In this document: positions 1 to 18,672 of the stretch, in pieces
Numbering within the stretch: position 1 is the first letter of the stretch
Layout of the letters: every line of letters begins with the position of its first letter
NCBI GenBank assembly: GCA_049296775.1
Contig: JBAQTB010000001.1
Coordinates: 96,992 to 160,991, forward strand
From: Patescibacteria group bacterium
GTDB taxonomy: Bacteria > Patescibacteriota > Patescibacteriia > UBA9934
Length of the DNA stretch: 64,000 nt
Reading direction: 5' to 3'
Notes under the pieces: model-generated
What the model saw: only the letters and a program-made list of their open reading frames with translations
Databases searched by the model: none
What the model was told of the DNA's origin: nothing
Made by a program: the position numbers and the translations under genes

Positions 1-687
1 GGTGTTCATGTTGAACGTGATCATCAATTCATCATTGCACAGCGGCAAAGTCGAATTAAAGCCCTGTTCCGTTTGGTAAAAACCGCGCTTAGAGTAAATT
101 AACTTGGTACCGAAAATTGATTCGATATTTTCGGTGCGTTTGTCTAACTCCTCTTTGGTTTTAGCGTAAATAGTTACGTAAAAAGTGAACTGGAAAAAAT
201 GCTCAATCCCTTGAGTCAGGTCATCACGCAGTTGCTCAACGTCACGCAAGGCCGTTTCTCGGATTGGGTCTCTAGGCTTGCCAGTTTCATTATCTGAGAC
301 AATTTGTGCCTCCAGCACACCCACTTTGTCACGTAATTGTTTCAAAATGACCTCAGCTTTAATAGGGTAAAAAAACATGCCCACGTCAATGGTGCCTTTG
401 TAATTGATGATCGGCGACCCCCAACCAATTCCCACGTATCTGGGGTAAGTAGTCACGAATAACGTTCTCACAAAAACATCGCCCAACATGAGGTGCGTAG
501 GCTGAACTTCAAAAGCGGCCGGGGCGATCAAATCCCGCACTGACACCGTTCCCCGACGATAAATTCGCTCCTCTTCTAAGGTAGTTTTTTCCTCAAGAGC
601 CTTCAGCTCTTTATCGGTTAACGGTTTGTCCTGCTTAACCGCGCCCTGCGACTGTTGGCGCTTGAGTTGTTCTAGATCAAAGGCCAT
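1..687 (-). CDS. virB4: Type IV secretion ATPase VirB4/TrbE/CagE family, downstream portion. It starts at ATG 687 and continues past the window start.
   Basis: Translation MAFDLEQLK...RDLIAPAAFEVQPTHLMLGDVFVRTLFVTTYPRYVGIGWGSPIINYKGTIDVGMFFYPI matches the conserved VirB4/CagE_TrbE N-domain block (rdliAP..gd.y.rTlfv.gyPr.v..gwl). It is the same family as the ORF immediately upstream on the same strand. Confidence 0.7.
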   Translation of the reverse strand, partial: MAFDLEQLKRQQSQGAVKQDKPLTDKELKALEEKTTLEEERIYRRGTVSVRDLIAPAAFEVQPTHLMLGDVFVRTLFVTTYPRYVGIGWGSPIINYKGTIDVGMFFYPIKAEVILKQLRDKVGVLEAQIVSDNETGKPRDPIRETALRDVEQLRDDLTQGIEHFFQFTFYVTIYAKTKEELDKRTENIESIFGTKLIYSKRGFYQTEQGFNSTLPLCNDELMITFNMNT

Positions 688-692
688 AAGGC

Positions 693-1391
693 TTAAAATT
701 TGGTTTCTACCTGTAACTTATTCAAATCAACCAACTTTTGAGTGTCCAAAATCTGCGGGTTATAACAGGTGTAATACAACTCAATTAAGCTCTGAGTATC
801 TAGCACCGCCGTCTGCAAACCCATACTCTGTAAGCCACCAGCCACGTTTGCGACCCGTTGAATCAAGCTGTCACGTCTGTCCTTAAACTGCTTAGTATTC
901 AGCTTCAAAAGTCTGGCCGGAGAAAACGCCGACTGCAGTCTGGTCAGGAAACTCTTACGTTTCTCATTGGTTTCACTAGGGTCATACGGCACGACCACAA
1001 AGAATTGCTTCTGCATGATCTCACCCAGCTCCACTAGTTCAGACACAAAAGACATGTAATCGCGAATCTGAGTTTTGAGTAACTCATTCGCAATCGTGTC
1101 TTCTTGTTGCTTCAGCTGCGCCATGTAACCGTCAATATTCATTTTTCTAGACTGAATCACCACCTGGATAGGATGCTCCAAACTATTCAAAAATTGCATG
1201 TAGCCCTGCACGGTGGCCTGCTGTTCGTCTTCACTCTTCAAGGCAAAGTTAATACTAGACACCAGCAACACCGCCCGCAAAGTGCCGTCTTTCATGATGA
1301 CTACATCCTCACGGATTTCCGCAATATCCAAATACCGCTGGGTAGGTGGCCCAACTTTAGGCTTAGCGAGTTTGCTCTTTTTATCAGCCAT
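693..1391 (-). CDS. virB4: VirB4-family ATPase, N-terminal fragment of 232 aa, separated from the rest of the gene by a frameshift.
   Basis: The motifs VVIMKDGTLRAVLLVSSINFALKSEDEQ, QVVIQSRKMN and FFVVVPYDP are typical of the N-terminus of Gram-positive VirB4 (TcpF/PrgJ-like). The stop at 693-695 lies 5 nt before the ATG of the next VirB4 piece, in a different frame. Confidence 0.65.
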   Translation of the reverse strand: MADKKSKLAKPKVGPPTQRYLDIAEIREDVVIMKDGTLRAVLLVSSINFALKSEDEQQATVQGYMQFLNSLEHPIQVVIQSRKMNIDGYMAQLKQQEDTIANELLKTQIRDYMSFVSELVELGEIMQKQFFVVVPYDPSETNEKRKSFLTRLQSAFSPARLLKLNTKQFKDRRDSLIQRVANVAGGLQSMGLQTAVLDTQSLIELYYTCYNPQILDTQKLVDLNKLQVETKF

Positions 1392-1394
1392 ACG

Positions 1395-1841
1395 TTACAA
1401 CTGGTTATCATCACCTTCGTAAACACCGCCGGTATTCACCACCATGGACAATTCTGACAGTCTGGACATTTCTAGCGGTTGTTTTACTAGTCTTAGCGGC
1501 GCCGTTTCAACGGCTTCATGTTTCAAGTACACACGTAAGTCAGCGTCACTCAAAGTCTTGTCCCACACCCGTTTACCCGGACGACGCAAAGTCTGCACCA
1601 CACTCACCACCCAATAATGAAACGGCTGGCCATTGACCTTACCAAAGGCAAAGGCGACCCCGAGCGCTAAAGTTGGAATACCCAACACGAGTAAGATGAA
1701 AATATTTAAAAAGATGCTGTAATACATGAACTCCACCAACAGCGTGGCGAGCATGATCAAAAATTGCCTAGCCGTAATCGGGCCAATGATTTTGGCCTCA
1801 ACGTCTAGAAATTGTGGGACCACAAATTGATTCCGCGGCAT
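1395..1841 (-). CDS. PrgI/VirB3-like small T4SS membrane protein
   Basis: 148 aa. The N-terminus VVPQFLDVEAKIIGPITARQFLIM is followed by two hydrophobic helices (PrgI-family pattern ...pk.ld.e.ki.g.lt.rQ). It sits immediately upstream of VirB4, as in Gram-positive T4SS loci. Confidence 0.55.
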   Translation of the reverse strand: MPRNQFVVPQFLDVEAKIIGPITARQFLIMLATLLVEFMYYSIFLNIFILLVLGIPTLALGVAFAFGKVNGQPFHYWVVSVVQTLRRPGKRVWDKTLSDADLRVYLKHEAVETAPLRLVKQPLEMSRLSELSMVVNTGGVYEGDDNQL

Positions 1842-1871
1842 GCCCTCAGTATAGCACGATCCGGATCACGT

Positions 1872-3611
1872 CTAGAACCTAATCTTAGCGTTTAGTAAGG
1901 CCAAGGCCTTGATCTCAGCCGGGCTCAAACTATCCTGTCCGGCCGCCCGACGCCGGCTACTCTCTTCTGGCAAAGTTAAACCTTGAGACAACGCTTCAGC
2001 CGTGATTTGTAAATACAATTGATTCATGGGACTGTTTCTCCAAGCCAACACACCCTTCAAACGCTCCTCATAAGACGTAGCCTCCAAAGCTGACAACAAA
2101 TCTTCGATCTTTTGACCAGCTTCACCCGCGTTACTAGACAACCGCCTAAATTCAGCAGGCGTTAAGCGTCCCAGCTGCTCAATTGGCCCCGCCAACCTAG
2201 CAGAACTCACCACGTCCACCATCTTCTTCTGACCACTGCCAGACATTAAATTTGTACTCCCCACGGTTAATTCCGTGTGAGTGGGTTTAACCTGTAAATC
2301 GGCCTCAGAAGTTGTTAACTTATCAAACCTGGCATCCAACGCCTGACCCTCTTGATCTGAATTCGAGCCGCCTTTTTTAGTAGCTTTAGTCTCAGACACT
2401 ACTACCGGAGAATTTTGATACACGTCCACCCCGGCCGTGATCGCTGCCATTAAGGCCGCTAAATCCCCACCCTTCAGACCCCAGTCCCGTTCTGCGATAT
2501 CCCGAGTCTGATAAATATCCCGCAAACCACGAATAGCTTTGCTAGCCAAATCAGCAAAGACCTTTTCTGAGATTTTAGCCTTCTTCAGCACATCTGCCGC
2601 CTGTTCAGTGGCTAACACTAGAGCCGCGGCGAAACTATCTTCAGAGCTAGCCGTCAGCTTCTTAGCGCTCGCAGCCCGCTTAGCCGAAACTTTCAACTCA
2701 GCGTGATCCATGTCTAGCTCTGACTTCTTGCTCGGAGTCACTGGAGCAGTCGCGACCACAGGCTTAACCGGTGGCGCAACAGCAGCCCCGGTAACCGGAG
2801 GCACCATGGGTGCGAGCACATTGATTGGCCGCTTAGGTAACGGTGGCGGGACACGTTTAGTATTAATCACCGGCACTTCAGCCGCCACCTCATGACTAGT
2901 CGCCACCACTAACTCCTGTTTCGCCATCTCAACCACCGGCTTTACGACCACCGGCTTCTCACCCTCCGCTTTGGCCACAACTGGCTCAGGTACTGTTGCG
3001 ACTTTTGCACCGTGTACAGTAGCCAAATCTGTCAGTTCCGCCGCTAAAGCCGCGTATAAAGATTCTGCCACGTCTTGCTTGAGTCCCAAACCGCCAATAT
3101 TCAGTGAACGAGTGAAATAGACCTTCAGCGAGTCTAAAGTTTTCTCGCCGTCCGAATATTGCTTCAGTAAGAAAGCTAAACGTTTCAAAAGTACATCAGA
3201 TAGATCAAGACCAAGGGCAGTAACAACCTCATCAATCTTTAAACGCTCTACCGTGTCATCCGTGGCAACACGAATATTTGGAAAGTCTGACACTTTACCA
3301 CCAAAAGTCACTAAAGCTTCTTCTACTCCAGGAATTATATTGGCGAGTGGCAAGAGTCTGTAACCAATCACTTCAAGCGCAATTTTATTCGCAACGTCTG
3401 GCTGTACCGCAAAGGCTTCTTCGATCAACCGTGGCATGTGATCAATCGGCAAGTCGCCATTCATGACGGCATCACAAAGATCTAAAAATTCCTCCGAACG
3501 CTCCGGCGGCAAGTTAAATTTCTTACAAATATCTTCCAGAGCATCAAAAATATCCCCGCTCATGAGAAAGGCTTGTACCGATGGAATTTTTAGTAATTGC
3601 GGCAACGACAT
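1872..3611 (-). CDS. Hypothetical T4SS-associated protein with a central Pro/Val/Ala-rich low-complexity linker
   Basis: 579-aa ORF in the same operon. The linker is PVVVKPVVEMAKQELVVATSHEVAAEVPVINTKRVPPPLPKRPINVLAPMVPPVTGAAVAPPVKPVVATAPVTPS. No recognisable catalytic motif. Confidence 0.4.
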   Translation of the reverse strand: MSLPQLLKIPSVQAFLMSGDIFDALEDICKKFNLPPERSEEFLDLCDAVMNGDLPIDHMPRLIEEAFAVQPDVANKIALEVIGYRLLPLANIIPGVEEALVTFGGKVSDFPNIRVATDDTVERLKIDEVVTALGLDLSDVLLKRLAFLLKQYSDGEKTLDSLKVYFTRSLNIGGLGLKQDVAESLYAALAAELTDLATVHGAKVATVPEPVVAKAEGEKPVVVKPVVEMAKQELVVATSHEVAAEVPVINTKRVPPPLPKRPINVLAPMVPPVTGAAVAPPVKPVVATAPVTPSKKSELDMDHAELKVSAKRAASAKKLTASSEDSFAAALVLATEQAADVLKKAKISEKVFADLASKAIRGLRDIYQTRDIAERDWGLKGGDLAALMAAITAGVDVYQNSPVVVSETKATKKGGSNSDQEGQALDARFDKLTTSEADLQVKPTHTELTVGSTNLMSGSGQKKMVDVVSSARLAGPIEQLGRLTPAEFRRLSSNAGEAGQKIEDLLSALEATSYEERLKGVLAWRNSPMNQLYLQITAEALSQGLTLPEESSRRRAAGQDSLSPAEIKALALLNAKIRF

Positions 3612-3632
3612 AGCTCCGAAGCATTCAAACTG

Positions 3633-6245
3633 CTAAGCAATATAACGAGATGCTGCTCGATGAGCCTTCTCTAACGCGGAAACATTAACAGACTTATCAG
3701 TTTCAGCTCGAATATACTGAGCCTGAATAGCCCGACCAACGGTAGCTAAAGTTGCTTTTATATCAGCTAAATCTTGACCAGAAGCAGTTAGAGCTCGCTG
3801 ACCTAACTTGGTAATACCGTCAGCCTGCAAGTTATCAATAATCGTATCAGCGATATCACTTTGTTCTGATGAATCTTGTGGCAAACCTGATTGTAAATGA
3901 CGAATAGACAACGGTTCAGTCTTAACCATCTGCTCAATACGCAAATGCATCTCCGCATTCAACATACCACCATCTGCCGCGTCACTTGGCATTAAACCAA
4001 TTTGCACTGGGTCACTACCACTATCCAATAATGACTTATCGACGTTAGCTCGCTGTACAGTTGAAAGCGCGTTTTTAGGTAGAGAGTTAACCACGCCAAC
4101 AACGGCATCCCTAACTGACGTGGATAACTTAGAGATCGAGTCAGTATCGATAATAGCCTTGGTCACGGAAACGCTGTTAGGTCCCTCGATATCCTCAACC
4201 TTCAGTTTATCTGGCTGCAAATTTCCTGACTCAATATTGGACGCGATTTCCGCAGGGGTATAAGCCCTTTCCACATCGACGACCTCACCCGATTTATTCG
4301 TTACCTGAGGCTTAAGTTTAGCAATGGTTGGACCCTGTGCATCTGGCGAACTATTCCCAATCGCGACACGGCTGCCACGCTTAGCTGCTTCTGCCAAATC
4401 TTTACCGTATGCACCATTCATGAGCTCTTCGTGCGCAGTAACGACCGCACCATCGTCCTTAGTCCTAACAACTCTATCTTTGAGTTGAGCGATGACATCC
4501 TCATCAGCCACAGCCTCTTTAGATAAGTCTCGACCGTTAAATTTATCTGATTGAATATGTTTACGCAGCTCTCCTTTACCCAACGCTTGATCAAGCAAAT
4601 GAGCCTGCTCGGTCTTAAAGGTAGCCACATTCTTTTTAGCATTTTCGTCCAAGTCGCCCTTCTTGGACTCAGAATCCTTCAGAGCAACGATATTTAATCG
4701 ATCATTCTGATTTAAACCATTGGCATCCAGACTAGGTTTGGCCTCAGCCTTGCTCTTATTCTCTTTACGTAAATTCTTATTAGTCGCAACTTCAAGTTGT
4801 AGATTAGCGATATCGTCTCTGGCACTACTTGTAATCGCAAACTTTTTGTCAGCCGCCAGCAAACTTAAGTGAGCTGACTTCTGAGAGTCAGTCATGGCAC
4901 CGAGTCGTTTCTGAGAAGCAACTCTGCCTTCTTTCTGAACGCCTTCAGCACGTTGCTGAACAGCACCTGAAGTATTAATCATTTGTCTACCAATAGCTCC
5001 ACCAACAATTGGGACTCTTTCTGCAACAGTTTGACCGAGTTTTATACCTAAATCTGAAGTTGTCCGAATACCCTCAACTCCAGCACGTTTTGCTGTGTAA
5101 CCGACCTCTGTTCCAGCTCGTTGAACTAAGCCACCACCGGTGTAACGAATGGCGCCGCCGATGAGTTTTTGGCCGAGTTTTTCGTCACCGAGGGCTTTTT
5201 GAGCTAAGCCGCCCATGCTGCTGGCAGTGGCGGCGGACTGCTGCATACCGACCACGAGCAAGGCTAGACCCAAAAAGGTCGATAAGAGTCCGGAAGTTTC
5301 TAAACTAACTAATGTCCCGCTCACGGACGGCTCGCCGGCCTCAAAGCCCTCACTGGCCAAAATATCACCAGAACCGGTGGCCAAAGCTAACCATAAGAAA
5401 AAGGTTAACATGGGACCGATGATCAAGGCCGAGGTGAATTTCTTCCACCAGTCAGAAGTGGCACCGGCCGCAAAAGAGAACATGCCGCCCAGTCCCCAAG
5501 TAAAGAAGGTTAGCGGTGACATAATCACCAAAACCCAGAGCATGATAATGCGCCAAATGTAGACCAAGGCTAACAGTAACAAAACCGCAAAGATACACAC
5601 GTACAAAATGAACAGCAGATACGCCGCTCCGAGCTGCTGAACGGCATCAATGGTAGACGGGGATCCATCTGGATTACGGGCGGCGCTATTAGAATATTGG
5701 CCAAAGTCTGTGATGCCGGTTAAATTCGCAAAGTTACCGGCGGCTACATCTAACAGGGAGTTCACAAACGTGAACATGATCACCTGGCTGAAGTCAATCA
5801 GTAAACCGCAAATAGTCCGGCTAAAATTCACCAAAATCACCGCCAATAAAAACTGCGGTAAGTTTTTCTGCCAATTAACCTTTTCATAACCAATAATCGT
5901 CGCCATGGCGATCACCAGCAACACCAAAACTACGAACATATTGACCACATCTCTCACCAGGGCCCAGCCCATACCAATCGTGGGGCTAGAGGAAAAATTG
6001 TTGTATTGCAAAATCGGCACTACTAGCATCTCAATCAGCGACAACGCCGTCGTGCCGATAAAGCTAGTAATTGAGATCATCAAATTGGCCAGGACTAGAA
6101 CCAGATACGCAAAGCCAGTGTCTACCAAACCCAGGTCAACCTGTGCGAGTGCAAAATGTCCAGGAGTAGCGAGCGCCAACAGCGCCACAGCAAAAACTGA
6201 AGCAAAGATGAACTTGTGCCGTTTCAAAAACGCAAAGACACGCAT
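3633..6245 (-). CDS. VirB6/TrbL-like polytopic membrane protein with an approximately 500-aa hydrophilic C-terminal extension. The ATG at 6245 is preferred over the upstream TTG at 6272.
   Basis: The N-terminus MRVFAFLKRHKFIFASVFAVALLALATPGHFALAQ looks like a signal peptide or first TM, followed by about 8 hydrophobic helices over 350 aa and then a K/E/D-rich tail. Position in the operon is between the peptidase and PrgI/VirB4. A TTATAAT -10 lies 13 nt upstream of the ATG. Confidence 0.5.
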   Translation of the reverse strand: MRVFAFLKRHKFIFASVFAVALLALATPGHFALAQVDLGLVDTGFAYLVLVLANLMISITSFIGTTALSLIEMLVVPILQYNNFSSSPTIGMGWALVRDVVNMFVVLVLLVIAMATIIGYEKVNWQKNLPQFLLAVILVNFSRTICGLLIDFSQVIMFTFVNSLLDVAAGNFANLTGITDFGQYSNSAARNPDGSPSTIDAVQQLGAAYLLFILYVCIFAVLLLLALVYIWRIIMLWVLVIMSPLTFFTWGLGGMFSFAAGATSDWWKKFTSALIIGPMLTFFLWLALATGSGDILASEGFEAGEPSVSGTLVSLETSGLLSTFLGLALLVVGMQQSAATASSMGGLAQKALGDEKLGQKLIGGAIRYTGGGLVQRAGTEVGYTAKRAGVEGIRTTSDLGIKLGQTVAERVPIVGGAIGRQMINTSGAVQQRAEGVQKEGRVASQKRLGAMTDSQKSAHLSLLAADKKFAITSSARDDIANLQLEVATNKNLRKENKSKAEAKPSLDANGLNQNDRLNIVALKDSESKKGDLDENAKKNVATFKTEQAHLLDQALGKGELRKHIQSDKFNGRDLSKEAVADEDVIAQLKDRVVRTKDDGAVVTAHEELMNGAYGKDLAEAAKRGSRVAIGNSSPDAQGPTIAKLKPQVTNKSGEVVDVERAYTPAEIASNIESGNLQPDKLKVEDIEGPNSVSVTKAIIDTDSISKLSTSVRDAVVGVVNSLPKNALSTVQRANVDKSLLDSGSDPVQIGLMPSDAADGGMLNAEMHLRIEQMVKTEPLSIRHLQSGLPQDSSEQSDIADTIIDNLQADGITKLGQRALTASGQDLADIKATLATVGRAIQAQYIRAETDKSVNVSALEKAHRAASRYIA

Positions 6246-6270
6246 AATTAAACTGATTATAACACGCGCC

Positions 6271-6308
6271 AAAAGAAAAAATGGAGACCAGGTTGTGACC
6301 CGGTCTCC
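6271..6308 (-). terminator. Rho-independent terminator downstream of the M23 peptidase gene
   Basis: On the minus strand, the stem GGAGACC/GGTCTCC (plus 6283-6289 / 6302-6308) with a 12-nt loop is followed by ATTTTTCTTTT. Confidence 0.55.
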
Positions 6309-6334
6309 ACGAGTAAGCGGAGTGGCGTTTTTGC

Positions 6335-8053
6335 TTACGGCACTACGATTTTCAGGCCACAGCCTGGGCTGAGCGGATCTTCCACCGTGGTGTAGCCCAA
6401 GTAGTCGCCTTGGTAAGTAGCTATGAGTGACCCTCTGACCTGTCCGGGCGGATACGGCGCCAGACAGGACCAGCTGTGCAGGCCATCATCCAGCACCTCA
6501 GCGCTGAAGCGGAAGCTGTCGCCCGGCACCAAGTCCGTCACCGTCACGGTGACAGAGTTGATGTTCTGGACTTCATTGAAGACACTCCCCCAGGCGCCTT
6601 CTGGCTGCCCCAAGCGAGTAGTCGCGCCGCGCAACGTGATAGCATCCACTGTTTCGTCGTCAGGTGTGAACCAGGTCAAAACCAGGTCATCACCTTCTGC
6701 AATGTCCGCGTTGATGCCCCCGCCACCCAGCACCTCTTGCGGGCCCCCGCAAGTAATGAGGTCGGTCCGGGTCAAGCACATGGTATCGGTGACGCACGTG
6801 CCACGCATTGTCGCCACGGCCATGAGCTCTTCGGCACGCATCTCAATGACCTCGCGGTCTTCCCAACCAGCCAACAGGAACGCTTCCCAGGTCTGAACGG
6901 GTTGAGCCACGCCGTCACTCATGACGTACACCGCGCTGTCCTCAACCGCCGAGATCAAGCTGCCGTCTCGGAAAGTCGCAGCACCAGCATAATCATAAGC
7001 CTGCACCAAGCCGGATTCTTCCGGTTCGTGATACAGATCGTTGTAAGTTGCAGCCGTGATGCCCCAGCTCTTCAAGACCGCCTGCCAGCCAGAGTCTGGC
7101 ACCAGCAAACGGTAGCGGTCGGGATCGGTCAGCTCCCCCACCAGCAGCCACACGGCTTGGTTGGGAAAGGCACCGAACACGGCCGTGATTTCAGTGGCGG
7201 CGCTCAAGCCAGCGTTCTGGCCGTAGCACACGCGTTCACTGTCTGAGATCAGCACCACATCGCTGAAGCTGTAGTTGCGACTGGTAAACGCTTCTTCCGT
7301 CAGGAATGGCGTGTACTGGTCGTTCTCAACCAGGTAAATCGTGGAATTACCTGGTACCTGCACCAAGCTGCCGTTCGGGTGCCACAGCGGTGTCTCCAGC
7401 AAGGAGCTGTACATTTGACCGCCGGGCAAGGCGCACCACATGTCGCTCGTCATGAGCTGCACGTGATCGCCTGGGCTGTTTTCCATGTCCAGGATCAGGC
7501 CGTCGACAGACTGCCCGTTCACGCCATCGAGCGAAGCATCACCCTGATGCCGGCCGTAGTGCACGTGATCTCCGGACGAGTAGCCTGTAGTACCCTCAAA
7601 GCCGAGCAATTGGCCAGCCGCAACCTCGCTCAAGTTGTCGATGAAGACGGTCTCCATATGACCCAAGATGAGGTAAGTACCGTCACCTTGATCAATGTTG
7701 ATATGCACGCCAAAGCCGCCCGTGCGGTCGTCGTCGTGGACGTAGGCCAAGCCGCCCACTGGTGCGAAGAGTGGCACGTCCACAGTGTTGGAAGTGTCGA
7801 GGTCGACATCGAACATAGTGCTCCGTGCGTTGTGCGAGGTGGTTCCACGTGCGCCCTGGGTACACACACCCGGATACCCGTAAGCGAAGGGCAAGTCCGC
7901 CATAATGGCATCCGTCCCGCCGCCGGTGAATTCTGGGATCTCAGCAACCGGCATTGGCCCCGAATGATACAGACACTCCGGTCCGCAGCAACCGCTGGCC
8001 AAATGCGCACACCACAACATCATCGCTACCAACAAACCGTTCAAATATCGCAT
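6335..8053 (-). CDS. Secreted M23/LytM-family metallopeptidase, a peptidoglycan hydrolase, in a GC-rich gene
   Basis: N-terminal signal peptide MRYLNGLLVAMMLWCAHLASG. M23 motifs HINIDQGDG...GHMETV and GFEGTTGYSSGDHVHYGRHQGD (G.TG.S.G.H.H). About 58-60% GC versus about 45% for the flanking T4SS genes. Confidence 0.7.
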   Translation of the reverse strand: MRYLNGLLVAMMLWCAHLASGCCGPECLYHSGPMPVAEIPEFTGGGTDAIMADLPFAYGYPGVCTQGARGTTSHNARSTMFDVDLDTSNTVDVPLFAPVGGLAYVHDDDRTGGFGVHINIDQGDGTYLILGHMETVFIDNLSEVAAGQLLGFEGTTGYSSGDHVHYGRHQGDASLDGVNGQSVDGLILDMENSPGDHVQLMTSDMWCALPGGQMYSSLLETPLWHPNGSLVQVPGNSTIYLVENDQYTPFLTEEAFTSRNYSFSDVVLISDSERVCYGQNAGLSAATEITAVFGAFPNQAVWLLVGELTDPDRYRLLVPDSGWQAVLKSWGITAATYNDLYHEPEESGLVQAYDYAGAATFRDGSLISAVEDSAVYVMSDGVAQPVQTWEAFLLAGWEDREVIEMRAEELMAVATMRGTCVTDTMCLTRTDLITCGGPQEVLGGGGINADIAEGDDLVLTWFTPDDETVDAITLRGATTRLGQPEGAWGSVFNEVQNINSVTVTVTDLVPGDSFRFSAEVLDDGLHSWSCLAPYPPGQVRGSLIATYQGDYLGYTTVEDPLSPGCGLKIVVP

Positions 8054-9519: not shown

Positions 9520-12500
9520 TTAATTCACGATCACCGTACCCTGATAATACACCCACGGATCTACCGGACCACCCGGAGCAATCGCGCGATTGTAAGAACA
9601 CTCGGACTGAAGGATCGTGGCATTACTCAATGTGTTATAAGCATCCCCCTCATAACAACCCGGGTCGCCGTCAGCGGTACATGTACCTGTACACCAACCC
9701 CAGTTATCGCGGATGTGGACGGCGGGCTGGAAGACACAAGATTTAGTGTCGCCTTCACCTGGGATCCAACATGGACTGTTAGTCGCTACGCCATTCTTAT
9801 ATTGGCAAGCCTTGGCGGTATCACTGGTGATCTGAGATGAACAGGTATAAGTGTGAGAATAAGAGAAGTAGTTTGGATCACAGCTCTCCGGTGTCTCACC
9901 CCACTCATCACCTTGATCACAGATAGACGTATCCGTAGCACCATCTATACCCCGGTGATTCCTATAGAAGTTATCTGTTGAGTCAGAACCCTGGAAGCCA
10001 TCTAACCTACTCTCTATACCGTCACCCCAATCAATAACAACGCGTCTAATCGGCAATTGATTCTTATCCGCGGCGGCGTAGAACTTCAGGTAAGCGCGCA
10101 AGAAATCTTCACCTTCAACGTTGCCTGAATTTTGATCGTTCAAAGTCAAAGCGTTCTCACTGCCCTCCTCACACAAAGTGCCGACACAGGAACCATTTAA
10201 GATCGACATAACCTTAGGCGGATTCCCCTGCTCCGCCCGGACGTCGAAGACACTTTCATCCACTTTAAAGTTTTCAATGTCACCCTCGTCGTACTTGCGC
10301 TCGTTATCTGGCCACGTCTTATCTTCAGAATTCCAACTGAATTGATTATCCACAATTCCAGGCAAGCTAACGCCGGCAAAAAGCTGGTTGATCGACCCGA
10401 AGACATCATCAAAGAAACCACTAACACCCCAGTTGCTAATTTCCGTACGGTTAGCATGAAGCTGTGCAAAACCGATAAAACTTCTAGCATCAGCCGTAGC
10501 TGGGTTGATACGTGTCAATAATTCATTCGAAGGAATGACTGAGACGCCCGTATCACCGCTACCACCACCGGCTGAATAGTTTGTCCCGCCTAGATATGCA
10601 CAATTATTATATGGCGCTGGACCTCCAGGATGAACCATGCTTTTCGCCGCAGTCTCTTCACAGGCCGCGACAACTAATGGCCACTCATCCTCCAAGGTAC
10701 TTGGATCGATACTGACAAAGCCGTATGGGCCAGGATTTGTACCGTAAACAAAGTCCAAAGTTGGGTCAGCAACAATACCTGGGAATGACGTTTCCTTGTC
10801 AGGACCCAACAACCTGTCCGTCCAAGCGTAATCGACCTTAGTCCCACCGTCAGACACGCGCGTCACTTCCTTACATGCCGCATAGAACTCCGCCTTCATG
10901 TACAAGTCTCGATATACATCTGTTGGTACTTCGATCCCATTAACCACAACGAAACCTCCGCCCTCAGGTGTATCAAACACGGCGGCATCAACAGCTTCAT
11001 TTACTTCAACACCCTTCAAAGTACAGTCGCTAAGTGCCTCTACCAACAAGTCGAAAGATATATAGTGGAACAGAGCATTAGCATCATCGATACCTTTAGC
11101 CATAGCCATGCCCATTATCTCAGCATCATTGGCTAAATTATATTTGAAAGTGAAGTTTAAGATCTGTCCAGATAACGCCTCTAAATCTCCCTCAATATCC
11201 TGGATTAAACCGGCGACATATGCGCTATCCGAATTGCAACTTTCGCCCTCCAAAGAGACCGCATCCTTAGGGATACACACAAATGGACAATCATTTCCAG
11301 CTCCAGTGGTGGCGCAAGCCTGAGACATCGTACCGTCATTTCCCTGTTCTTTATATGATGGCATGCCTAACAAAGCCCAATAACCTTCGGGACACTGAGC
11401 ATTGGCAGCGCACTCTTGTGCGATATCAAACGAATAGGCCTCATCATCCGCAATACCCTCCTGGCCCGACTCAGCACAAGCAATGTCGCCAGAGGAATAT
11501 GGCGCACCGAGTTTAGAATAACCGCTCATCTTGAGGTTCGCCATTGGAGAGACGTATGAACAAGCGAACGTGTCCTCAAAGTAACCGGCTTCGGTGAATT
11601 TGGCGTAGAGGTCGGTGCTGCCGGCGAGTTGGTCAACCGGCAACCAGGTCAAACAGGCGCCTTCGGAACGGTCGCCGTTAATATTGACGCCAGTGTCTCT
11701 TTCCAAACAGTAACCCTCTAAACCAAGGAGCGTATCTTCACGCGTAATCATGGAACACGTACCGTCCTCGCTATCCGTTGCGGTGTTGCATTCGGCATCA
11801 TCCTGACAGGCTGCATTAACTTTCCCGGTGGTACATAAGCCGCTACCACTGGTCACTGCAGACTCCACATCCCAATACCTAATCTGAGCACCCTCACCGT
11901 AGGTCAATTTGCGGTAAGAACATTGACAATCCTCACCTGGGGCACACAAATTAACTTCTTGGAAACCAGCTCTAATCTGATACGGCACGTCATCCTTAGG
12001 GAATTCAACTTGAGTAAAGCCTTCACCTGCCGGCAACGGAGCGCCGTTATTGTCTGGATCAGCCCAACGCTCAACTAGCTCGAAGCTAAACGGAGCGTCG
12101 CTCTCTGGTTGAGCCCGGCAAACTTTACCCTCTGATAGGGCTACATTAAAGGTCTTGCCGTCCGGGGTCAAAATACACTGGTCACGCACACAGCTACCAA
12201 CTTTGAGAGCCGTGTTAGCCACGAATACCTGACCGGCAGCACAAGCGCCGTTAGGGTTACTTCCGAAGGCGTTGAAAGTTTCAATGGTAACTTTACCGCC
12301 CTGTGAAACACACTGGGAACCAGAACAGATCTGATCGGCGGCACAATTGGAATCCGTAGCACACAAGGTACCGGTCTGAACCTGACAGGAACCAGCAATA
12401 CAGCTACCACCTGACAGACCACAATCCGTGGTGGAAGCACAGGCAGAACCGGTGTTCTGACAGTAACCAACCGAACAACTAGAACCGTAACTACCAGAAC

Positions 12501-15500
12501 ATTCGCCAGCAACTAATGCCAAGCGGTAATCCTCAGCATCATCAACTACGCAGTAATTAGCGAACGTGCCACCAATACCACAGTCGTACGCGCTGGTCTC
12601 TTGCTCACACGGGTAGCCGTGCTTGTTTTGATAATGATCCTCCGTAATCAGGCCGCTGGCATACGCGTCACTCAAATCACATGATCCTGGTGGCGGAGAC
12701 ACGTTCGCTTGTTCCAAAGTTTGCACGGGGAAAATGTCAGGAATAGCGTAACCAGAATATTCCTGTCCGTACCAAGACACGTCTCTAGAGGTATACACGC
12801 CTGCATCTAAAATAACTTCAGACGCATCCTCTTTCCAGGCTGAACAGAAAGTACTGCCACCAGAAGAGGAGTATTTAGTACACAACTGAATATCGGTACA
12901 CACAGTCTTCCAGCTATTCGTCCGCTGATCCCAGCTAGCCATGTCCTCAGCACAACTCAACCACTCAGAACACTGGCGATCACGGTTAACTTTGAGAACG
13001 GTATTGGTGTCATTCTCTAATCTTGGTACGGCCACGGCCTGAGCTCCACCCGGCGCCGCAGGTGAAGTCGCCCTAGCCCTGGTATTACAGTCAAAGGCGG
13101 CAATTTCGTCACCGGACTGGCTGCGCATGGTGCCACAATCTGACACGTCGTAGCAGGAGGTACCGGTTAAGTAGAGATCGTCATAATTCTTAGGAACTCC
13201 CAAACCACCAAGTGACAGTTTAATGTTTCTTGGCACTCCGTCTGCAATATCCCGCACCATGCCTTTGTCATAGAGACAACGCTGTGCACACAGATCAACC
13301 TGAGTGCCATCCGCCAAAGTCAGCCTAGAATTACCGCCTTCACAATCAATCGGCTCAACCAAGGCAAACGGCTGCGTGCCTAGCAAAACATCAGCATGCG
13401 TACTTAAGACCTCTGAAGCACTGGCATTATATTTTTGAGCTGGCTCAGAAGTGTCGTTAAACAGGACGCAACCTTCCTTGAGAGAAGCTCTGCCGTCACA
13501 ACGCTGACTGTCTGGCAAGACATTCTCGTCCAAATTATCGTTATTCAAGTAGAAATACTGCTTACCAGAAGACAGCTGATAACGTTCATCCGTTTCCAAG
13601 TCCAATGGATCCTGGAATTCAGAACAAGAGTTGTAATTACTTGGACACTCGCCTACCCAACCGCCGTACTGGTCATCACCATTGCGCCATACACCGGACA
13701 ACGTGCCACCAATCACATAAGAAGGATCCGTGGTGTTACAGCTACCAGCGCCACATTGCGCATCTGAAGAACAAGACGTCACGCCGTCAGTACACGTGCC
13801 GTAACAGAACTCATCTGTACCCGCCCTGAACCAACCGTCATATTCTGCGCCGTTGATCAAAACATCAGTCCGGTAGCCACAAGTTTGGTTGACTGGGTCT
13901 TTAAAGAAGAAAGTGCCATCATCTTGAGTATCCCACGCCGCACAGAACAGTTCACCGGCATTACACAAAGTCTGAGCGTATTGATCGGGGTCGTTCATTA
14001 AGAATACTGATTCAGCGGCAAGAGTGCTATTTCTGTCCTGGCTCCATTCTGGTTTACCTACCTCTGTACAACCAGCGTATGCAGAACTACACGTCACACT
14101 CTCATCTACCACCAAGAACACATCACTATCCGCTGGAACAACTACGGTCTCTGGTCCGTAAGTAATGTGAGATGGCAAGATATTAGGATTTTGGTACCAG
14201 TCAATATCAAAGTTACACGCCGTTTGGCCAACGCCAATGGTACACAGATACTGACTAGTGAGGTCAAAACCACCAGCTCCGTCACGCTTGTAGTAGCAAG
14301 AAGCTGGAGAGGTCACTGCTGCCCCACCCGGGTTACTACACGTAGCTTGATACACCTCAGCAAAAGGTGATGAGCTCTCATGGGTCATGAAGAAATCTTC
14401 ACAACCAACTTTATCGCTAGAACACAAACTGCTGAATGATTTTAAGTAAGCAATCTGATTGTCTTGAGTGTTGTATTCCTGACAACCCAGGTAATACTGC
14501 GGAGAAGCTGCGCCTGTAGGAGCCTGATCACAAGCCGCTGGAGTCACCCAAGAATCTTTAATGAGGGTAATGTCGTCCTCACCTTCACGTAACGTAATGT
14601 TGTCAATGTAAGCTAAACTAGTTGGGTCAAAAACTAACGTAGTCGCTGGGCCAAAGTTTGCGTAACCCTCTCTAGTCATGTTGAGTGGCCCCAAACTGAA
14701 CTGCTGCCAACCGCTGGTTAGTTTGACCGTGCCAAAGGCGACATCAGCCACTGACGATCCTGGCACAGCGGCAAGGTCAAAAGCGGCCGTCAGATCCCCC
14801 GTACCTTTAGCCCAGAAAGACAAAGTGTAAGTCTTGCCCTGGAAAAGTTGATTTTCCAAGGTGCCACAGTAAGTATTGCCCTCAATGACTACACAGTTGC
14901 CGCCAAAACTCTGAGCTGTACCGCTACAACCACCCGGCGTGGCACAAACAGAGCCATTATCAAAGATAAAGGTTGAGAATTGGTTCGTAGCTGCAATCGA
15001 ATGACCACCCGTGGCCAGAGATTCATTACTCAAAGTCACGTCTGCAGCACTAGCGGCGTCCCAATTGTTCAAATCGCCGCCCTCCAACGTGTCTTCAAAG
15101 GCAATACGGCTGTTTCTACTTCTACCACCTGTGTATGACCTACAACCGTTAGCTGAATCTGGACACTCCACACTCTCCTCGCTGTAACCGTTGTAGCGAC
15201 AGGTTCCAGTTAGGTCATCAAAATACCCACCGGAGTTTTGACAGTTAGCAGCTTGCGCAAAAGCATCCGTACCCACCAGTTCGGTTTTGCGGTAAGCGCT
15301 ACATGCAGCGTTCACAGACACGGTCTTGGACCACAATCTGTAATGAATTCCACCGCTCGTGTCATAGAACTCTCGGCAGTCTGGGTTAGAGAAAATATCC
15401 TCATGTTCATTACAAGCAGCCGTATCCCAATCCTTCTTAAGATCGCCGTCACTATCTAGCTCATCAGAACATACGATCCCGTCAGCGGTAGCGCTCCAGA

Positions 15501-18500
15501 CTGAACACGGTGCCAAACTTGGGGTGCTATCGATTCCGCCCGCCATATAAGTGTACGGGGTGCTGGCCATGTTTGATTCCAACAAACTCCAAGTTTTTAG
15601 CTGGTAACCCTCCAAATCAGAGCCTTCCCACGTGTAGAAAGTGGCCTGATTATCCCCGTTGGTATTGATAGCGGCCTGAGTTGGGGTGACGCAGGCTCGG
15701 AGATAAGTGTAGTACTCCAAAGCCTCCGTGCTCAAGTTAGTAAACTCATCACAGCCCACGTATTCCTGTGAACAAGACTCACCCGTGGTCGGAATGAAGT
15801 AAACCGGGAAAGTGCCAGCTGGCTCATACAAAGTTGCCTCTTGCTTGAAAGTATCGTAACCGACACAAATAGCTGGACAGGCGTCTAACTCTGACGCCAC
15901 ACCGGTGACAGTTGGATCACCGTTAGTTGGCGTGTAAGCCGTACAGCCAACTTCATTCTCACTACACACCTGCGCATAATTAGCACACTCAGCTGGATCA
16001 GCAGCGTTACCCTGACAACCCAAGTAACTTGGTGGCACCTTCACACTGACGCTGCTCAACTGACTAGTTGAGTAGCCTTCATGATAATCAGTCGCACCCT
16101 CACCCTGCTCTAACTGAATATCGTCAAAGAAAACGTTGCCGGACAAGGTCAAAGTTGCCATGACCGTGGCGGCTGGATCACGCAAAATTGGTGACGTGAA
16201 GGTACAAGCAAAGCTCTCATACTCGGTACCAGTTGGCGTACCGCTCGTCTCAAAAACATCCGCTAAGCCGTTACCATTAGTGACATTGCCACTGTTGGCG
16301 ATTACACAAGTAGTGTTGGCATCAGCAAAGAAGCTCGTGCCGTTCAGGTTAATATCATTCCCAGTTTCAAGGGCTAGAAACTCCAAAGCCAAGGTACCGG
16401 TGGAATTACTACCGACTCCTTTAATCTCTGTCTTTTGGCGGGCGTAAAACGAAACCGTGTAAAAACGTCCCTGAGCCAGGGCGATACCTGGCTGAATCAG
16501 TTCGCCGTTCAAACTTGGATCAATAGCATCAGAACCTGATCGGGCTGAATTGTCAGAATTAACTGCCGCACCAACTCCACCGCGCTGCCAAGCGTCAGGC
16601 ACGGTGTCATTGTTCTGATCATCTTCAAAAGACGAGTTCTGCACTACGTTTAAACTAATCCCCGGGTTACGGGCATACAACTCAGCACAGCCACCATTTT
16701 CAGCCGAACAATCCTCTACCGCGCTAGTAAAGTAAATGCGGGAAGTGTAAGCATCCGGCGCAGCATCTGCTACAGCCACATCTGCCACGGGCTGCCAATC
16801 ATAAGTGCCGTCACCCTCTGGATCCGCCTTAACGGTGTCGTACCACAAACAACCAGCGTTATCCGCAGTACAGCCCGCAAAGTCGACAGTATTTTGCAAG
16901 TAAGACGCGGTCTTATCTTCTCCCTCAAACGTCAGACAAGAAGCGTATTCAGCTGGACAAGACTCCCCTCTAAAGCGCCAGGTATTTTCTTCTTGCACAC
17001 AGTAACCGTAACCACCGGTACAGGTACCGTCATCATTTTCTGCAATACAGCTAGGCATGTCTACACACTCGTTTTGACGCTCAGCAATATCTGAGGCCAC
17101 TAATAGCTGCCCGCTCACCAAGGCTTTACACTGAGTTTCTGGGTATTTAATTACCCAATTTGGGTCAATGAGCTTACACCACGGATGCGTAGCATCAATT
17201 TCACCGGCCGTATTACAGTCATCAAAACCGTCCACTACCTCCTGCAAAGTCACGGCATCTGTCACGGAGTTGTATTGCGATTCAGCCGCCAACTCCCAAC
17301 CAATCGAGATAATTCTAGCCTTGCGCAATTTCACCAAGTTAGTCTGACAAAAACCGTAGGTATAGCAGAAAGGGTCCTGGTTTCTAGCCAAATCTGCAGC
17401 TGGAATAAGCGGCCAACTGCCGCTAATCAAATTCTGCTCCAAGGCTTCTGCCACGGTTAACGGTGCCCCAGCCTCCGCCCGACCGACAGCAGAGATAAAG
17501 GAATTATTCGCGACACAGTTATATAAACCTCTTGGCACTCCAGAAGGACAAGAGCCGAATTCACTCAAGATGCTGTAATTAGAAATTTCCAACGGCGCCA
17601 CAGTGATAAGTGACCTGAACTGATCTCTAGCCGTGTCTGAATTACTCCTAGCAATGGAATCCAAGCTAGCAAAAGGGTCGCTAATCTCGCTATCAATCTT
17701 AAAGAGGCCCTCACCAAGTTTTTTAGTTAAACTAGACAACAAAGTATTCGTAAAGACAGAGCCTGCGTGGATACCCACTTGGAGCAAAGCGCGCTCTGAC
17801 TGCATCAACGCCAAGGTAGTTTCTGTCCTAACCGTACCTGGTCCTTCTAGGTCCACAAGGAGTTTATGCTCTATAAGTGAGGCTGGGGTTTCGATCTGAC
17901 CGGTAATAAAGTCTGTGACAGACTGCGTACCGCCATCTTTAATATGCACCTGGGCCCTCAAAAATGACTCCTGCAGAGCATTATTCAAAATGCTAGACTG
18001 CAACTCAATACCCACCGCAAATTCACTTTGATCTGGCTCAAAAGCGTTAGCTAGCTGAGCTAGAACCAACTTATTTTTGTTATCTGCAGTCCCTTCATCC
18101 TGAATATCTGCCAAAAAACCATTCCAATTACTACTAATAGCTTTAAAATCACACTTAGGCACCGGACGCTCAAAGGCGGCCTTCACACCCAAACTAAGCG
18201 CGATAGTGATATCTGCCCTGGGTTGACAGAGGTTGAAACCGGAAAAAATCGCACCCAAAGCACCACCACCAGCCTCCAAATTATCTTGCAATAAACCCAG
18301 AGACTCACCCGCCACCGCCGCCCCATATTCCTTAAAGTAACGCTCAATTGGCGTGCCATCATACAGCGGCGTCTCCGCTGGACCACCCGAAGCCACCATC
18401 ACCGCCGTATCATACGCCAATCTATCCGCTGCAAACGTCATTAAATTGATCAAATACACCATGATCGTACCAGCCAAACTATCCTTGATCTTTTCACCAG

Positions 18501-18669
18501 CGCTATTAATGCCCGCCCAGGCTTCAAAAGCTGGATAAGTGGTAATGGCAGTTGCAGGAGCCTGAGCACTAGCGAAGCGGGGGGATGAAGCACTAAAGAA
18601 AACTATACCAACCAGCAAGAGTGGCAATAGTTTGCGAGCTGAGTTCTTCAACCTGAACATGTAGCGCAT
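9520..18669 (-). CDS. Giant secreted cysteine-rich surface protein (3049 aa) with two CBM4_9-like carbohydrate-binding jelly-roll modules and a C-terminal PKD-like module
   Basis: Signal peptide MRYMFRLKNSARKLLPLLLVGIVFFSASSPRFASAQA. Hundreds of Cys in CxxxxC / GxC repeats, for example GSCIAGSCQVQTGTLCATDSNCAADQICSGSQC. CBM4_9-like signatures GRFYTVSFYARQK and GKTYTLSFWAKGTG sit in roughly 200-aa modules. The PKD-like signature VVIDWGDG...YSHTYTC is near the C-terminus. No LPxTG sorting signal. Confidence 0.75.
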   Translation of the reverse strand: MRYMFRLKNSARKLLPLLLVGIVFFSASSPRFASAQAPATAITTYPAFEAWAGINSAGEKIKDSLAGTIMVYLINLMTFAADRLAYDTAVMVASGGPAETPLYDGTPIERYFKEYGAAVAGESLGLLQDNLEAGGGALGAIFSGFNLCQPRADITIALSLGVKAAFERPVPKCDFKAISSNWNGFLADIQDEGTADNKNKLVLAQLANAFEPDQSEFAVGIELQSSILNNALQESFLRAQVHIKDGGTQSVTDFITGQIETPASLIEHKLLVDLEGPGTVRTETTLALMQSERALLQVGIHAGSVFTNTLLSSLTKKLGEGLFKIDSEISDPFASLDSIARSNSDTARDQFRSLITVAPLEISNYSILSEFGSCPSGVPRGLYNCVANNSFISAVGRAEAGAPLTVAEALEQNLISGSWPLIPAADLARNQDPFCYTYGFCQTNLVKLRKARIISIGWELAAESQYNSVTDAVTLQEVVDGFDDCNTAGEIDATHPWCKLIDPNWVIKYPETQCKALVSGQLLVASDIAERQNECVDMPSCIAENDDGTCTGGYGYCVQEENTWRFRGESCPAEYASCLTFEGEDKTASYLQNTVDFAGCTADNAGCLWYDTVKADPEGDGTYDWQPVADVAVADAAPDAYTSRIYFTSAVEDCSAENGGCAELYARNPGISLNVVQNSSFEDDQNNDTVPDAWQRGGVGAAVNSDNSARSGSDAIDPSLNGELIQPGIALAQGRFYTVSFYARQKTEIKGVGSNSTGTLALEFLALETGNDINLNGTSFFADANTTCVIANSGNVTNGNGLADVFETSGTPTGTEYESFACTFTSPILRDPAATVMATLTLSGNVFFDDIQLEQGEGATDYHEGYSTSQLSSVSVKVPPSYLGCQGNAADPAECANYAQVCSENEVGCTAYTPTNGDPTVTGVASELDACPAICVGYDTFKQEATLYEPAGTFPVYFIPTTGESCSQEYVGCDEFTNLSTEALEYYTYLRACVTPTQAAINTNGDNQATFYTWEGSDLEGYQLKTWSLLESNMASTPYTYMAGGIDSTPSLAPCSVWSATADGIVCSDELDSDGDLKKDWDTAACNEHEDIFSNPDCREFYDTSGGIHYRLWSKTVSVNAACSAYRKTELVGTDAFAQAANCQNSGGYFDDLTGTCRYNGYSEESVECPDSANGCRSYTGGRSRNSRIAFEDTLEGGDLNNWDAASAADVTLSNESLATGGHSIAATNQFSTFIFDNGSVCATPGGCSGTAQSFGGNCVVIEGNTYCGTLENQLFQGKTYTLSFWAKGTGDLTAAFDLAAVPGSSVADVAFGTVKLTSGWQQFSLGPLNMTREGYANFGPATTLVFDPTSLAYIDNITLREGEDDITLIKDSWVTPAACDQAPTGAASPQYYLGCQEYNTQDNQIAYLKSFSSLCSSDKVGCEDFFMTHESSSPFAEVYQATCSNPGGAAVTSPASCYYKRDGAGGFDLTSQYLCTIGVGQTACNFDIDWYQNPNILPSHITYGPETVVVPADSDVFLVVDESVTCSSAYAGCTEVGKPEWSQDRNSTLAAESVFLMNDPDQYAQTLCNAGELFCAAWDTQDDGTFFFKDPVNQTCGYRTDVLINGAEYDGWFRAGTDEFCYGTCTDGVTSCSSDAQCGAGSCNTTDPSYVIGGTLSGVWRNGDDQYGGWVGECPSNYNSCSEFQDPLDLETDERYQLSSGKQYFYLNNDNLDENVLPDSQRCDGRASLKEGCVLFNDTSEPAQKYNASASEVLSTHADVLLGTQPFALVEPIDCEGGNSRLTLADGTQVDLCAQRCLYDKGMVRDIADGVPRNIKLSLGGLGVPKNYDDLYLTGTSCYDVSDCGTMRSQSGDEIAAFDCNTRARATSPAAPGGAQAVAVPRLENDTNTVLKVNRDRQCSEWLSCAEDMASWDQRTNSWKTVCTDIQLCTKYSSSGGSTFCSAWKEDASEVILDAGVYTSRDVSWYGQEYSGYAIPDIFPVQTLEQANVSPPPGSCDLSDAYASGLITEDHYQNKHGYPCEQETSAYDCGIGGTFANYCVVDDAEDYRLALVAGECSGSYGSSCSVGYCQNTGSACASTTDCGLSGGSCIAGSCQVQTGTLCATDSNCAADQICSGSQCVSQGGKVTIETFNAFGSNPNGACAAGQVFVANTALKVGSCVRDQCILTPDGKTFNVALSEGKVCRAQPESDAPFSFELVERWADPDNNGAPLPAGEGFTQVEFPKDDVPYQIRAGFQEVNLCAPGEDCQCSYRKLTYGEGAQIRYWDVESAVTSGSGLCTTGKVNAACQDDAECNTATDSEDGTCSMITREDTLLGLEGYCLERDTGVNINGDRSEGACLTWLPVDQLAGSTDLYAKFTEAGYFEDTFACSYVSPMANLKMSGYSKLGAPYSSGDIACAESGQEGIADDEAYSFDIAQECAANAQCPEGYWALLGMPSYKEQGNDGTMSQACATTGAGNDCPFVCIPKDAVSLEGESCNSDSAYVAGLIQDIEGDLEALSGQILNFTFKYNLANDAEIMGMAMAKGIDDANALFHYISFDLLVEALSDCTLKGVEVNEAVDAAVFDTPEGGGFVVVNGIEVPTDVYRDLYMKAEFYAACKEVTRVSDGGTKVDYAWTDRLLGPDKETSFPGIVADPTLDFVYGTNPGPYGFVSIDPSTLEDEWPLVVAACEETAAKSMVHPGGPAPYNNCAYLGGTNYSAGGGSGDTGVSVIPSNELLTRINPATADARSFIGFAQLHANRTEISNWGVSGFFDDVFGSINQLFAGVSLPGIVDNQFSWNSEDKTWPDNERKYDEGDIENFKVDESVFDVRAEQGNPPKVMSILNGSCVGTLCEEGSENALTLNDQNSGNVEGEDFLRAYLKFYAAADKNQLPIRRVVIDWGDGIESRLDGFQGSDSTDNFYRNHRGIDGATDTSICDQGDEWGETPESCDPNYFSYSHTYTCSSQITSDTAKACQYKNGVATNSPCWIPGEGDTKSCVFQPAVHIRDNWGWCTGTCTADGDPGCYEGDAYNTLSNATILQSECSYNRAIAPGGPVDPWVYYQGTVIVN

Positions 18670-18672
18670 AAC

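Follow-up and report, generated by a model that had tools for sequence, protein, structure and literature searches.

A probable relaxase-free type IV secretion gene cluster, with comF as its last gene, on a Patescibacteria chromosome

RESULTS AND DISCUSSION

Gene content and extent of the locus

We analyzed a 64-kb stretch of DNA from a Patescibacteria group bacterium (contig JBAQTB010000001.1; the whole stretch is referred to below as the window), in which a set of genes at positions 1 to 8053, all on the minus strand, probably codes for a type IV secretion system (T4SS). An earlier reading made from the sequence only had described five co-directional genes at this locus. All genes are indeed co-directional where this was claimed, but six open reading frames (ORFs) are present, which encode an M23 peptidase, an 870-aa membrane protein, a 579-aa protein, PrgI, a 232-aa protein, and the start of VirB4 (Table 1). 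A public contig of 41 kb (L001) was recovered by exact-sequence look-up of PrgI; it is identical to the window over the overlap and extends beyond window position 1 by 8 kb. The same look-up with the 232-aa protein gave no match. Past the window edge, L001 encodes the rest of VirB4 (644 aa in total), a 182-aa protein, and a 214-aa ComF-family protein, with fur, znuA, and ABC transporter genes downstream of comF. The operon thus consists of seven genes, in the order VirB6-like, 579-aa protein, PrgI/VirB3, TrsD-like, VirB4, VirB8-like bitopic protein (182 aa), and ComF. The remainder of the 64 kb holds housekeeping genes, including ksgA, sua5, a prfA-type release factor gene, groEL, yidC, nusA, the RNase J gene, five aminoacyl-tRNA synthetase genes, and glycosyltransferase genes. 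The locus is chromosomal, with housekeeping genes flanking it on both sides.

Table 1. Features of the secretion locus and its upstream neighbors (window coordinates)
Feature	Coordinates	Strand	Basis or remarks
virB4, 5' part (first 229 of 644 codons; runs off the window)	1..687	-	NCBIfam conju_CD1110, E 5.6e-20 on the fragment
TrsD-like protein, 232 aa	693..1391	-	NCBIfam TrsD/TraD NF041427, E 8.1e-6, below curated cutoff
PrgI/VirB3-like protein, 148 aa	1395..1841	-	Pfam PF12666, 38 bits (cutoff, 27)
Possible internal extended -10 box, TGCTATACT	1848..1856	-	6 nt before the prgI ATG; one of 5 window sites
579-aa proline-rich protein, no transmembrane segment	1872..3611	-	Three all-helical domains, disordered proline-rich linkers
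Extended VirB6-like polytopic membrane protein, 870 aa	3633..6245	-	Signal-like N terminus, ~6 to 8 transmembrane helices
Extended -10 promoter element, TGTTATAAT	6256..6264	-	10 nt upstream of the VirB6-like start (ATG at 6245)
Intrinsic terminator closing the M23 unit	6271..6310	-	13-bp stem (6310-6281) with 7 G-C pairs, 4-nt loop, T-tract (6280-6271)
Secreted M23 peptidoglycan endopeptidase, 572 aa	6335..8053	-	Pfam PF01551, 40.2 bits (cutoff, 28.7)
225-aa membrane protein and 3,049-aa secreted Cys-rich protein (128 Cys) with CBM_4_9 domain	9520..19350	-	Pfam; recurrent neighbor, system membership unproven

The nearest database entries were metagenome-assembled genomes (MAGs) of "Patescibacteria group bacterium" and "Candidatus Uhrbacteria." A search with a VirB4 alignment against one genome per species yielded 80 loci from Uhrbacteria, Falkowbacteria, and Magasanikbacteria, which we take to belong to GTDB class ABY1. 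ORFs were called in all loci and then searched with family profiles built for this analysis. The seven-gene cassette was complete, with gene order and direction unchanged, in 63 of 83 loci; in many of the others, the contig is short or cut and one end of the cassette is missing from it. From the VirB6-like gene to comF, the median intergenic gaps were 9, 20, 4, 4, 5, and -4 nt. Median identity to the window proteins was highest for VirB4 (81%), TrsD (70%), and PrgI (62%), followed by the VirB8-like protein (45%), the M23 peptidase (44%), ComF (43%), and the VirB6-like and 579-aa proteins (34% each). As VirB4 identity ranged from 68 to 94% across the related loci and the pairwise distances of the other components correlated with those of VirB4, the cassette appears to be vertically inherited. 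Among loci L010 to L084, many contigs of clearly Patescibacterial MAGs are titled "uncultured Gammaproteobacteria bacterium," an evident labeling error of bulk submission.

VirB4, TrsD-like protein, and PrgI

The full-length VirB4 on L001 scored 342.7 bits against NF045971 (VirB4-like conjugal transfer ATPase, CD1110 family; cutoff, 325) and also matched the Pfam families P-loop_TraG, AAA_10, and DUF87. Its Walker A (SGAGKS) and Walker B (ILCIDEAW) motifs are intact. Both of the first two ORFs of the window had previously been read as VirB4; this was correct for one of them, while the other encodes the TrsD-like protein. VirB4 models aligned to the 232-aa protein solely at their N-terminal positions (approximately 2 to 146), and the truncated VirB4 ORF aligned from model position 170 onward, which indicates that the two proteins together make up a canonical VirB4. 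The part of canonical VirB4 to which TrsD-like proteins are homologous is its N-terminal ~170 residues, and the precomputed Pfam annotation of the 232-aa protein is PF26593 (TraC-like). Where related loci contain this gene, virB4 follows it immediately in almost every case (median gap, 4 nt). A split or pseudogenized VirB4 was considered and rejected, since the split is kept in all related loci and matches the known TrsD family. The 148-aa ORF was correctly taken for PrgI (Table 1), and its two hydrophobic segments correspond to two transmembrane helices.

VirB6-like, 579-aa, and VirB8-like proteins

The transmembrane helices of the polytopic 870-aa protein lie within residues 40 to 340, and its C-terminal half of approximately 500 aa is helical and hydrophilic. 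The ORF spans positions 3633 to 6272 when read from a TTG codon; however, the TTG at 6272 falls inside the T-tract of the terminator, and the ATG at 6245 is the likely start, giving 870 aa. No Pfam or NCBIfam match to VirB6 or TrbL was obtained for this protein, nor any by Pfam in 52 members of its family. A comparison of the family profile with Protein Data Bank (PDB) sequences and an hhalign comparison with PrgH of plasmid pCF10 revealed no link to VirB6, and a Foldseek search of the predicted model against the PDB returned helical-repeat noise alone. The sequence-only reading had described the protein as VirB6-like, and we retained this description for its position as the first cassette gene, its several transmembrane segments, and its predicted fold, all of which are consistent with an "extended VirB6," an architecture described in a recent review. 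A channel protein recognizable as VirB6 by fold alone may explain the scarcity of VirB6 that surveys using sequence profiles record for parts of the phylum.

The proline-rich hypothetical protein of the sequence-only reading corresponds to the 579-aa protein, for which no Pfam or NCBIfam match was found. Its structure was predicted with AlphaFold2 (mean predicted local distance difference test score, 73.8), with domains at residues 1 to 199, 303 to 400, and 476 to 579, and the model had no Foldseek match in the PDB. Ten distant family members were likewise without a Pfam match. The family is large, with 2,566 cluster representatives at an E value of ≤1e-3 among 1.84 billion, and its gene sits between the VirB6-like gene and prgI wherever a contig holds both. 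It is tempting to speculate that this protein could be an adaptor standing in for the coupling protein.

The gene that follows virB4 lies outside the window; its 182-aa product combines one transmembrane helix at the N terminus with an alpha/beta domain of approximately 115 aa, which is the layout of VirB8. The Pfam VirB8 score of this protein was below threshold (19.3 bits; cutoff, 23.2), and 3 of 29 family members matched this model. One member matched SnoaL_4 (NTF2-like) at an E value of 4.8e-5. Alignment with PrgL of pCF10 by hhalign was weak (6% probability), and a search of the protein's profile against PDB sequences yielded nothing useful.

ComF as a member of the operon

The 214-aa ComF protein matched TIGR00201 (comF) over its full length (E value, 1.9e-19), with a score of 70 compared to a curated cutoff of 233. 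A search by sequence against solved structures found no homologue. At the junction between the VirB8-like gene and comF, the two genes were within 30 nt of each other in 49 of 76 loci and the median gap was negative (-4 nt), so that comF lies as close to its neighbor as the genes of the core do to theirs. In addition, 29 of 84 loci had recG within 10 kb of the cassette, and 6 had dprA. The membership of ComF in the operon points to DNA as a possible substrate.

M23 peptidase

The gene upstream of the cassette does encode an M23 peptidase, as the earlier reading had it (Table 1), and its profile matched the solved enzymes TagE, LytM, ShyA, and lysostaphin. Across 33 homologues, the HxxxD and HxH zinc motifs do not vary, nor do 8 cysteines and a lipobox-like G-C-C motif at the N terminus; a C-terminal Cys-rich region of approximately 400 aa is conserved. 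Judged by these motifs, the peptidase looks active and is probably lipid anchored. No convincing small pilin-like ORFs were found between the M23 gene and the next gene.

The GC content of the M23 gene is 59% and its GC content at third codon positions (GC3) is 0.71, compared to approximately 47% and 0.5 in the neighboring genes, with sharp borders at the gene ends. This offset was positive in 30 of 30 related loci (+3 to +18 GC points; mean, +10.6). Recent horizontal transfer was ruled out as the source of the high GC content because the offset is present in all 30 loci and the M23 distances track those of VirB4. In the related contig L002, the public gene call at 7542 to 9308 is a 588-aa antisense ORF without a domain; the true M23 gene on the other strand (7563 to 9284) was missed on account of its high GC content.

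Terminator and promoter signals

A terminator had been placed behind the M23 gene, and a hairpin followed by a T-tract (TTTTTCTTTT) is indeed located there (Table 1). A hairpin with a T-run and a stability of -10 kcal/mol or stronger was found between the M23 stop codon and the next start in 28 of 32 related loci. The M23 gene is thus transcribed separately and is provided with a Shine-Dalgarno sequence of its own (AGGAG). The -10 box reported ahead of the VirB6-like gene proved to be real and is of the extended type, but its distance to the ATG is 10 nt rather than the 13 nt first given. Of 63 loci, 38 had the motif TGnTATA[A/C]T at 9 to 11 nt before the homologous ATG, and in 46 the motif preceded it by at most 15 nt. 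Five such sites are present in the 64 kb on both strands, of which 3 abut annotated gene starts; in addition to the two listed in Table 1, they include sites at 19362 to 19370 and 45092 to 45100. An extended -10 box 6 to 11 nt before the ATG therefore appears to be a common start signal in this DNA. As a box 10 nt from the ATG leaves a leader of only a few nucleotides, the cassette mRNA is probably almost leaderless and without a Shine-Dalgarno sequence, unlike that of the M23 gene. For prgI, the GAGGG between the internal TGCTATACT box and the ATG could be a ribosome-binding site instead.

Search for relaxase, coupling protein, and mobility genes

It had been claimed that the 64 kb encode neither VirD4 nor a relaxase. 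Pfam scans, in which ORFs of at least 150 aa were taken as genes and overlapping antisense ORFs were excluded, likewise detected neither in the window. The 8-kb gene list beyond window position 1 also contained no relaxase or coupling protein, bringing the inspected sequence to approximately 72 kb, and no integrase was found on either flank. An ordinary conjugative element with an adjacent relaxase and VirD4, which the sequence-only reading had itself named as the contrary outcome, was not detected in these 72 kb. Across 84 loci, no integrase, relaxase, or type IV coupling protein (T4CP) was detected within 10 kb on either side by a seed search of limited sensitivity. PcfC and PcfG seeds of pCF10 matched nothing in the 84 loci, and the PrgJ seed matched all 85 VirB4 ORFs. 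VirB2-like pilin genes were not noticed within the cassette or next to it, although no exhaustive search for them was made.

Comparison with known systems

Previous research has shown by transposon sequencing that the T4SS of the Saccharibacteria is essential for epibiotic growth (Southlakia epibionticum SEML1_0006 to SEML1_0019) and that it is Gram-positive-like in composition, without relaxase and coupling protein (Wang et al. 2023, PMC10633639). A later survey described a monophyletic Patescibacteria clade of VirB4 with its origin in MPF-FATA, in which TrsD was the partner of highest abundance (Quinonero-Coronel et al. 2025, PMC12102498). The survey also reports PrgI/VirB3, VirB6, M23-domain hydrolases, and few VirB8 homologues, almost all of them in ABY1, as well as a relaxase near virB4 in 15 genomes only, ksgA nearby, and comF, recG, and radA in ABY1 (PMC12102498). 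The locus studied here closely resembles that clade: it is chromosomal, its MPF-FATA-type virB4 adjoins genes for TrsD and PrgI/VirB3, and a VirB6-type and, as in ABY1, a putative VirB8-type component are present. A nearby peptidase-type hydrolase, the absence of a linked relaxase or coupling protein, comF and recG as in ABY1, and ksgA are further shared features. Among the differences, VirB6 sequence models do not recognize the VirB6-like protein of this locus, and a conserved 579-aa protein, of which no mention was found in the portion of the survey consulted (PMC12102498), is encoded inside the operon. The presence of the 579-aa gene is also one of three differences from the Saccharibacterial prototype. 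Whereas that system has an essential pilin array, no VirB2-like pilin genes were noticed here by the nonexhaustive inspection described above, and ComF is an integral member of this operon that overlaps the preceding gene.

Similarities to the conjugation systems of Gram-positive bacteria were also observed. The order VirB3-like, TrsD, VirB4 is that of TrsC-TrsD-TrsE in the pGO1/pSK41/pIP501 group, in which TrsD is likewise a free-standing homologue of the VirB4 N terminus. However, those systems are plasmid borne and have a relaxase, VirD4, and an SLT/CHAP hydrolase, whereas the cassette is chromosomal, without relaxase or VirD4 nearby, and associated with an M23 enzyme. The Prg/Pcf system of Enterococcus faecalis plasmid pCF10 shares the VirB4 family (NF045971, as annotated for PrgJ), a cell wall hydrolase, and the order VirB6-like, VirB3-like, VirB4, VirB8-like (PrgH-PrgI-PrgJ-PrgK-PrgL). 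PrgH is much shorter (266 aa) than the 870-aa protein and shares no detectable profile similarity with it, and the similarity of PrgL to the 182-aa protein is weak. Furthermore, pCF10 encodes PcfC (VirD4), PcfG (relaxase), and the adhesin PrgB, and the first two of these had no counterpart in the seed search. Like the ComB system of Helicobacter pylori and the Ced system of the Sulfolobales, the cassette combines a VirB4-type ATPase with the lack of a relaxase, and as with ComFC of H. pylori, ComF-type handling of single-stranded DNA (ssDNA) is associated with the system. It differs from both in belonging to a monoderm, in having no linked comEC, and in its other membrane components, and DNA import is in this case proposed from the genes.

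Proposed function and alternative explanations

Overall, the locus is most probably a chromosomal, relaxase-free T4SS gene cluster of the Patescibacteria, in the form typical of Uhrbacteria and of MPF-FATA descent. VirB4, together with TrsD and PrgI, would power a translocon that spans the envelope, with the VirB6-like and VirB8-like membrane proteins as its framework. The M23 enzyme would cut peptidoglycan cross-links locally and thereby allow the machine to assemble or to reach a partner cell; in this role, it is likely the wall-opening enzyme of the system and a functional analogue of VirB1. The lack of a linked relaxase or coupling protein and the vertical inheritance among housekeeping genes argue that this is not a conjugation apparatus, in line with the earlier suggestion of a role in host interaction, and the system would more likely move macromolecules between the epibiont and its host cell. 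As ComF is an ssDNA-handling protein tightly coupled to the operon, DNA is a serious candidate substrate in this class.

Several points weigh against this interpretation. The 579-aa protein has no known counterpart, and the parts list may therefore be misread; the VirB8 assignment of the 182-aa protein is below threshold; and a terminator stands between the M23 gene and the cassette, which has no M23 gene upstream in 23 of 53 loci. For class ABY1, the proposed function is a prediction from the genes. To our knowledge, there is no cultured ABY1 representative with genetic tools. A distant VirD4 homologue elsewhere in the genome is likely, because the survey counts 5,713 VirD4-type homologues in 2,918 Patescibacteria genomes (PMC12102498).

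An alternative with a modest chance of being correct is that the cassette works in DNA import, as an analogue, in a monoderm, of Helicobacter ComB or archaeal Ced, and takes up DNA from the environment or the host, with ComF receiving the single strand at the cytoplasmic face and passing it to DprA and RecA. The tight packing of comF as the last operon gene, its full-length match to TIGR00201, the proximity of recG and, less often, dprA, and a weak match of VirB4 to the DNA-import ATPase CedB (E value, 1e-12) are consistent with this idea, and the absence of a relaxase fits import better than export. The 2025 survey also records comF, recG, and radA near secretion genes in ABY1 (PMC12102498). 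However, the secretion system of S. epibionticum is essential while its comEC, comF, and dprA are not, and transformation of this organism depends on comEC, the classical competence channel. In addition, ComF scores well short of its curated cutoff, its place beside the secretion genes could reflect conserved housekeeping synteny should the genome have no other comF, and a ComB-like step would have no outer membrane to cross in a monoderm. The more specific proposal that the ABY1 operon is a device importing DNA, possibly from the attached host cell, and passing the single strand on for recombination, with comF translationally coupled as its last gene, recG, dprA, and radA recurring nearby, and the 579-aa protein replacing the coupling protein, appears slightly less probable still. 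A different doubt concerns the M23 enzyme, which we consider unlikely to be an ordinary cell wall remodeling enzyme that neighbors the cassette without a dedicated secretion role. Its strong terminator, its own Shine-Dalgarno sequence, its high GC3 relative to the cassette, and its absence from the upstream position in the 23 loci mentioned above would fit such an enzyme. By comparison, the gene was directly upstream and co-directional in 30 of the 53 loci with enough upstream sequence, regardless of whether the next upstream gene encodes the giant protein described below or seryl-tRNA synthetase (serS), and M23 and VirB4 pairwise distances were correlated (Spearman coefficient, 0.72). M23-type domains in secretion system hydrolases are not without precedent, as PrgK of pCF10 has a LytM domain. 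In the survey, Peptidase_M23 is reported as an added domain in Patescibacterial VirB1 homologues, and a peptidase and a lysozyme homologue beside virB4 of S. epibionticum are given as essential (PMC12102498). The earlier description of this peptidase as dedicated to the secretion system, for which there is precedent in the literature, is thus plausible as far as adjacency and largely shared inheritance are concerned but has to be qualified by its separate transcription and its patchy presence.

It is very improbable that the locus is a remnant or part of an integrated conjugative element with relaxase and coupling protein located elsewhere. Such an element would account for the CD1110 family of VirB4 and the PrgI-TrsD-VirB4 order known from Gram-positive conjugative plasmids, and approximately 72 kb of a 455-kb contig were in view. 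However, housekeeping genes lie on both sides, the same chromosomal cassette recurs across several candidate phyla (at least 83 genomes; VirB4 identity, 68 to 94%), and the seed search, within its limited sensitivity, detected no integrase, relaxase, or T4CP near 84 loci. The published survey found a relaxase near virB4 in the above-mentioned 15 genomes only (PMC12102498).

Few machines have been shown to be essential for Patescibacteria living as epibionts, and T4SSs are one of them. The system itself is already published (2023 and 2025), down to the lack of a relaxase, the presence of TrsD and PrgI, and the linkage to comF in ABY1; this study adds the tight packing of comF, the large unannotated 579-aa family, and the high GC3 of the M23 gene. 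The locus thus provides a clean and highly conserved parts list for one large class rather than a new kind of system. DNA import, if true, would make it the monoderm counterpart of ComB or Ced.

Neighboring genes and other observations

Upstream of the M23 gene, positions 8054 to 8665 form a noncoding stretch of approximately 600 nt with minus-strand terminator-like hairpins at 8407 to 8390 and 8654 to 8639. An Rfam scan of positions 1 to 10000, which include this stretch, gave no match. It is followed on the plus strand by a 236-aa ORF (8666 to 9376), opposite to the surrounding genes, with a lipoprotein-like signal (LIAC) and a GC3 of 0.80. This ORF had no homologue among 86 related loci and has the appearance of an insertion, specific to the strain, that separates the giant gene from the M23 gene.

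The 3,049-aa protein (Table 1) has an N-terminal signal segment as its sole hydrophobic segment and is preceded by the 225-aa membrane protein, which carries a TSP3 repeat. Homologues were located upstream of the cassette or of the M23 gene in at least 11 related loci, including those of Magasanikbacteria, and in the window the pair is headed by an extended -10 box of the cassette type at 19370. Two DsbA genes and a VKOR gene are present in the window (35308 to 37459 and 51552 to 52373), which is consistent with heavy extracellular use of disulfides. In a related genome (L003, positions 235 to 7270), a 1,902-aa Rhs/SpvB/TcdB-type toxin-like protein is encoded upstream of the M23 gene and the cassette, with four small ORFs after it, a second example of a giant secreted protein beside the secretion system.

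A second island of high GC3 was observed on the plus strand at 58542 to 60000, with ORFs of 207 and 217 aa (GC3, 0.74 and 0.65) in which neither a Pfam match nor a signal peptide was found; this island may be foreign DNA. Finally, the minus strand encodes a tRNA-Ile at 49359 to 49435 with the anticodon UAU, which is uncommon among bacteria.

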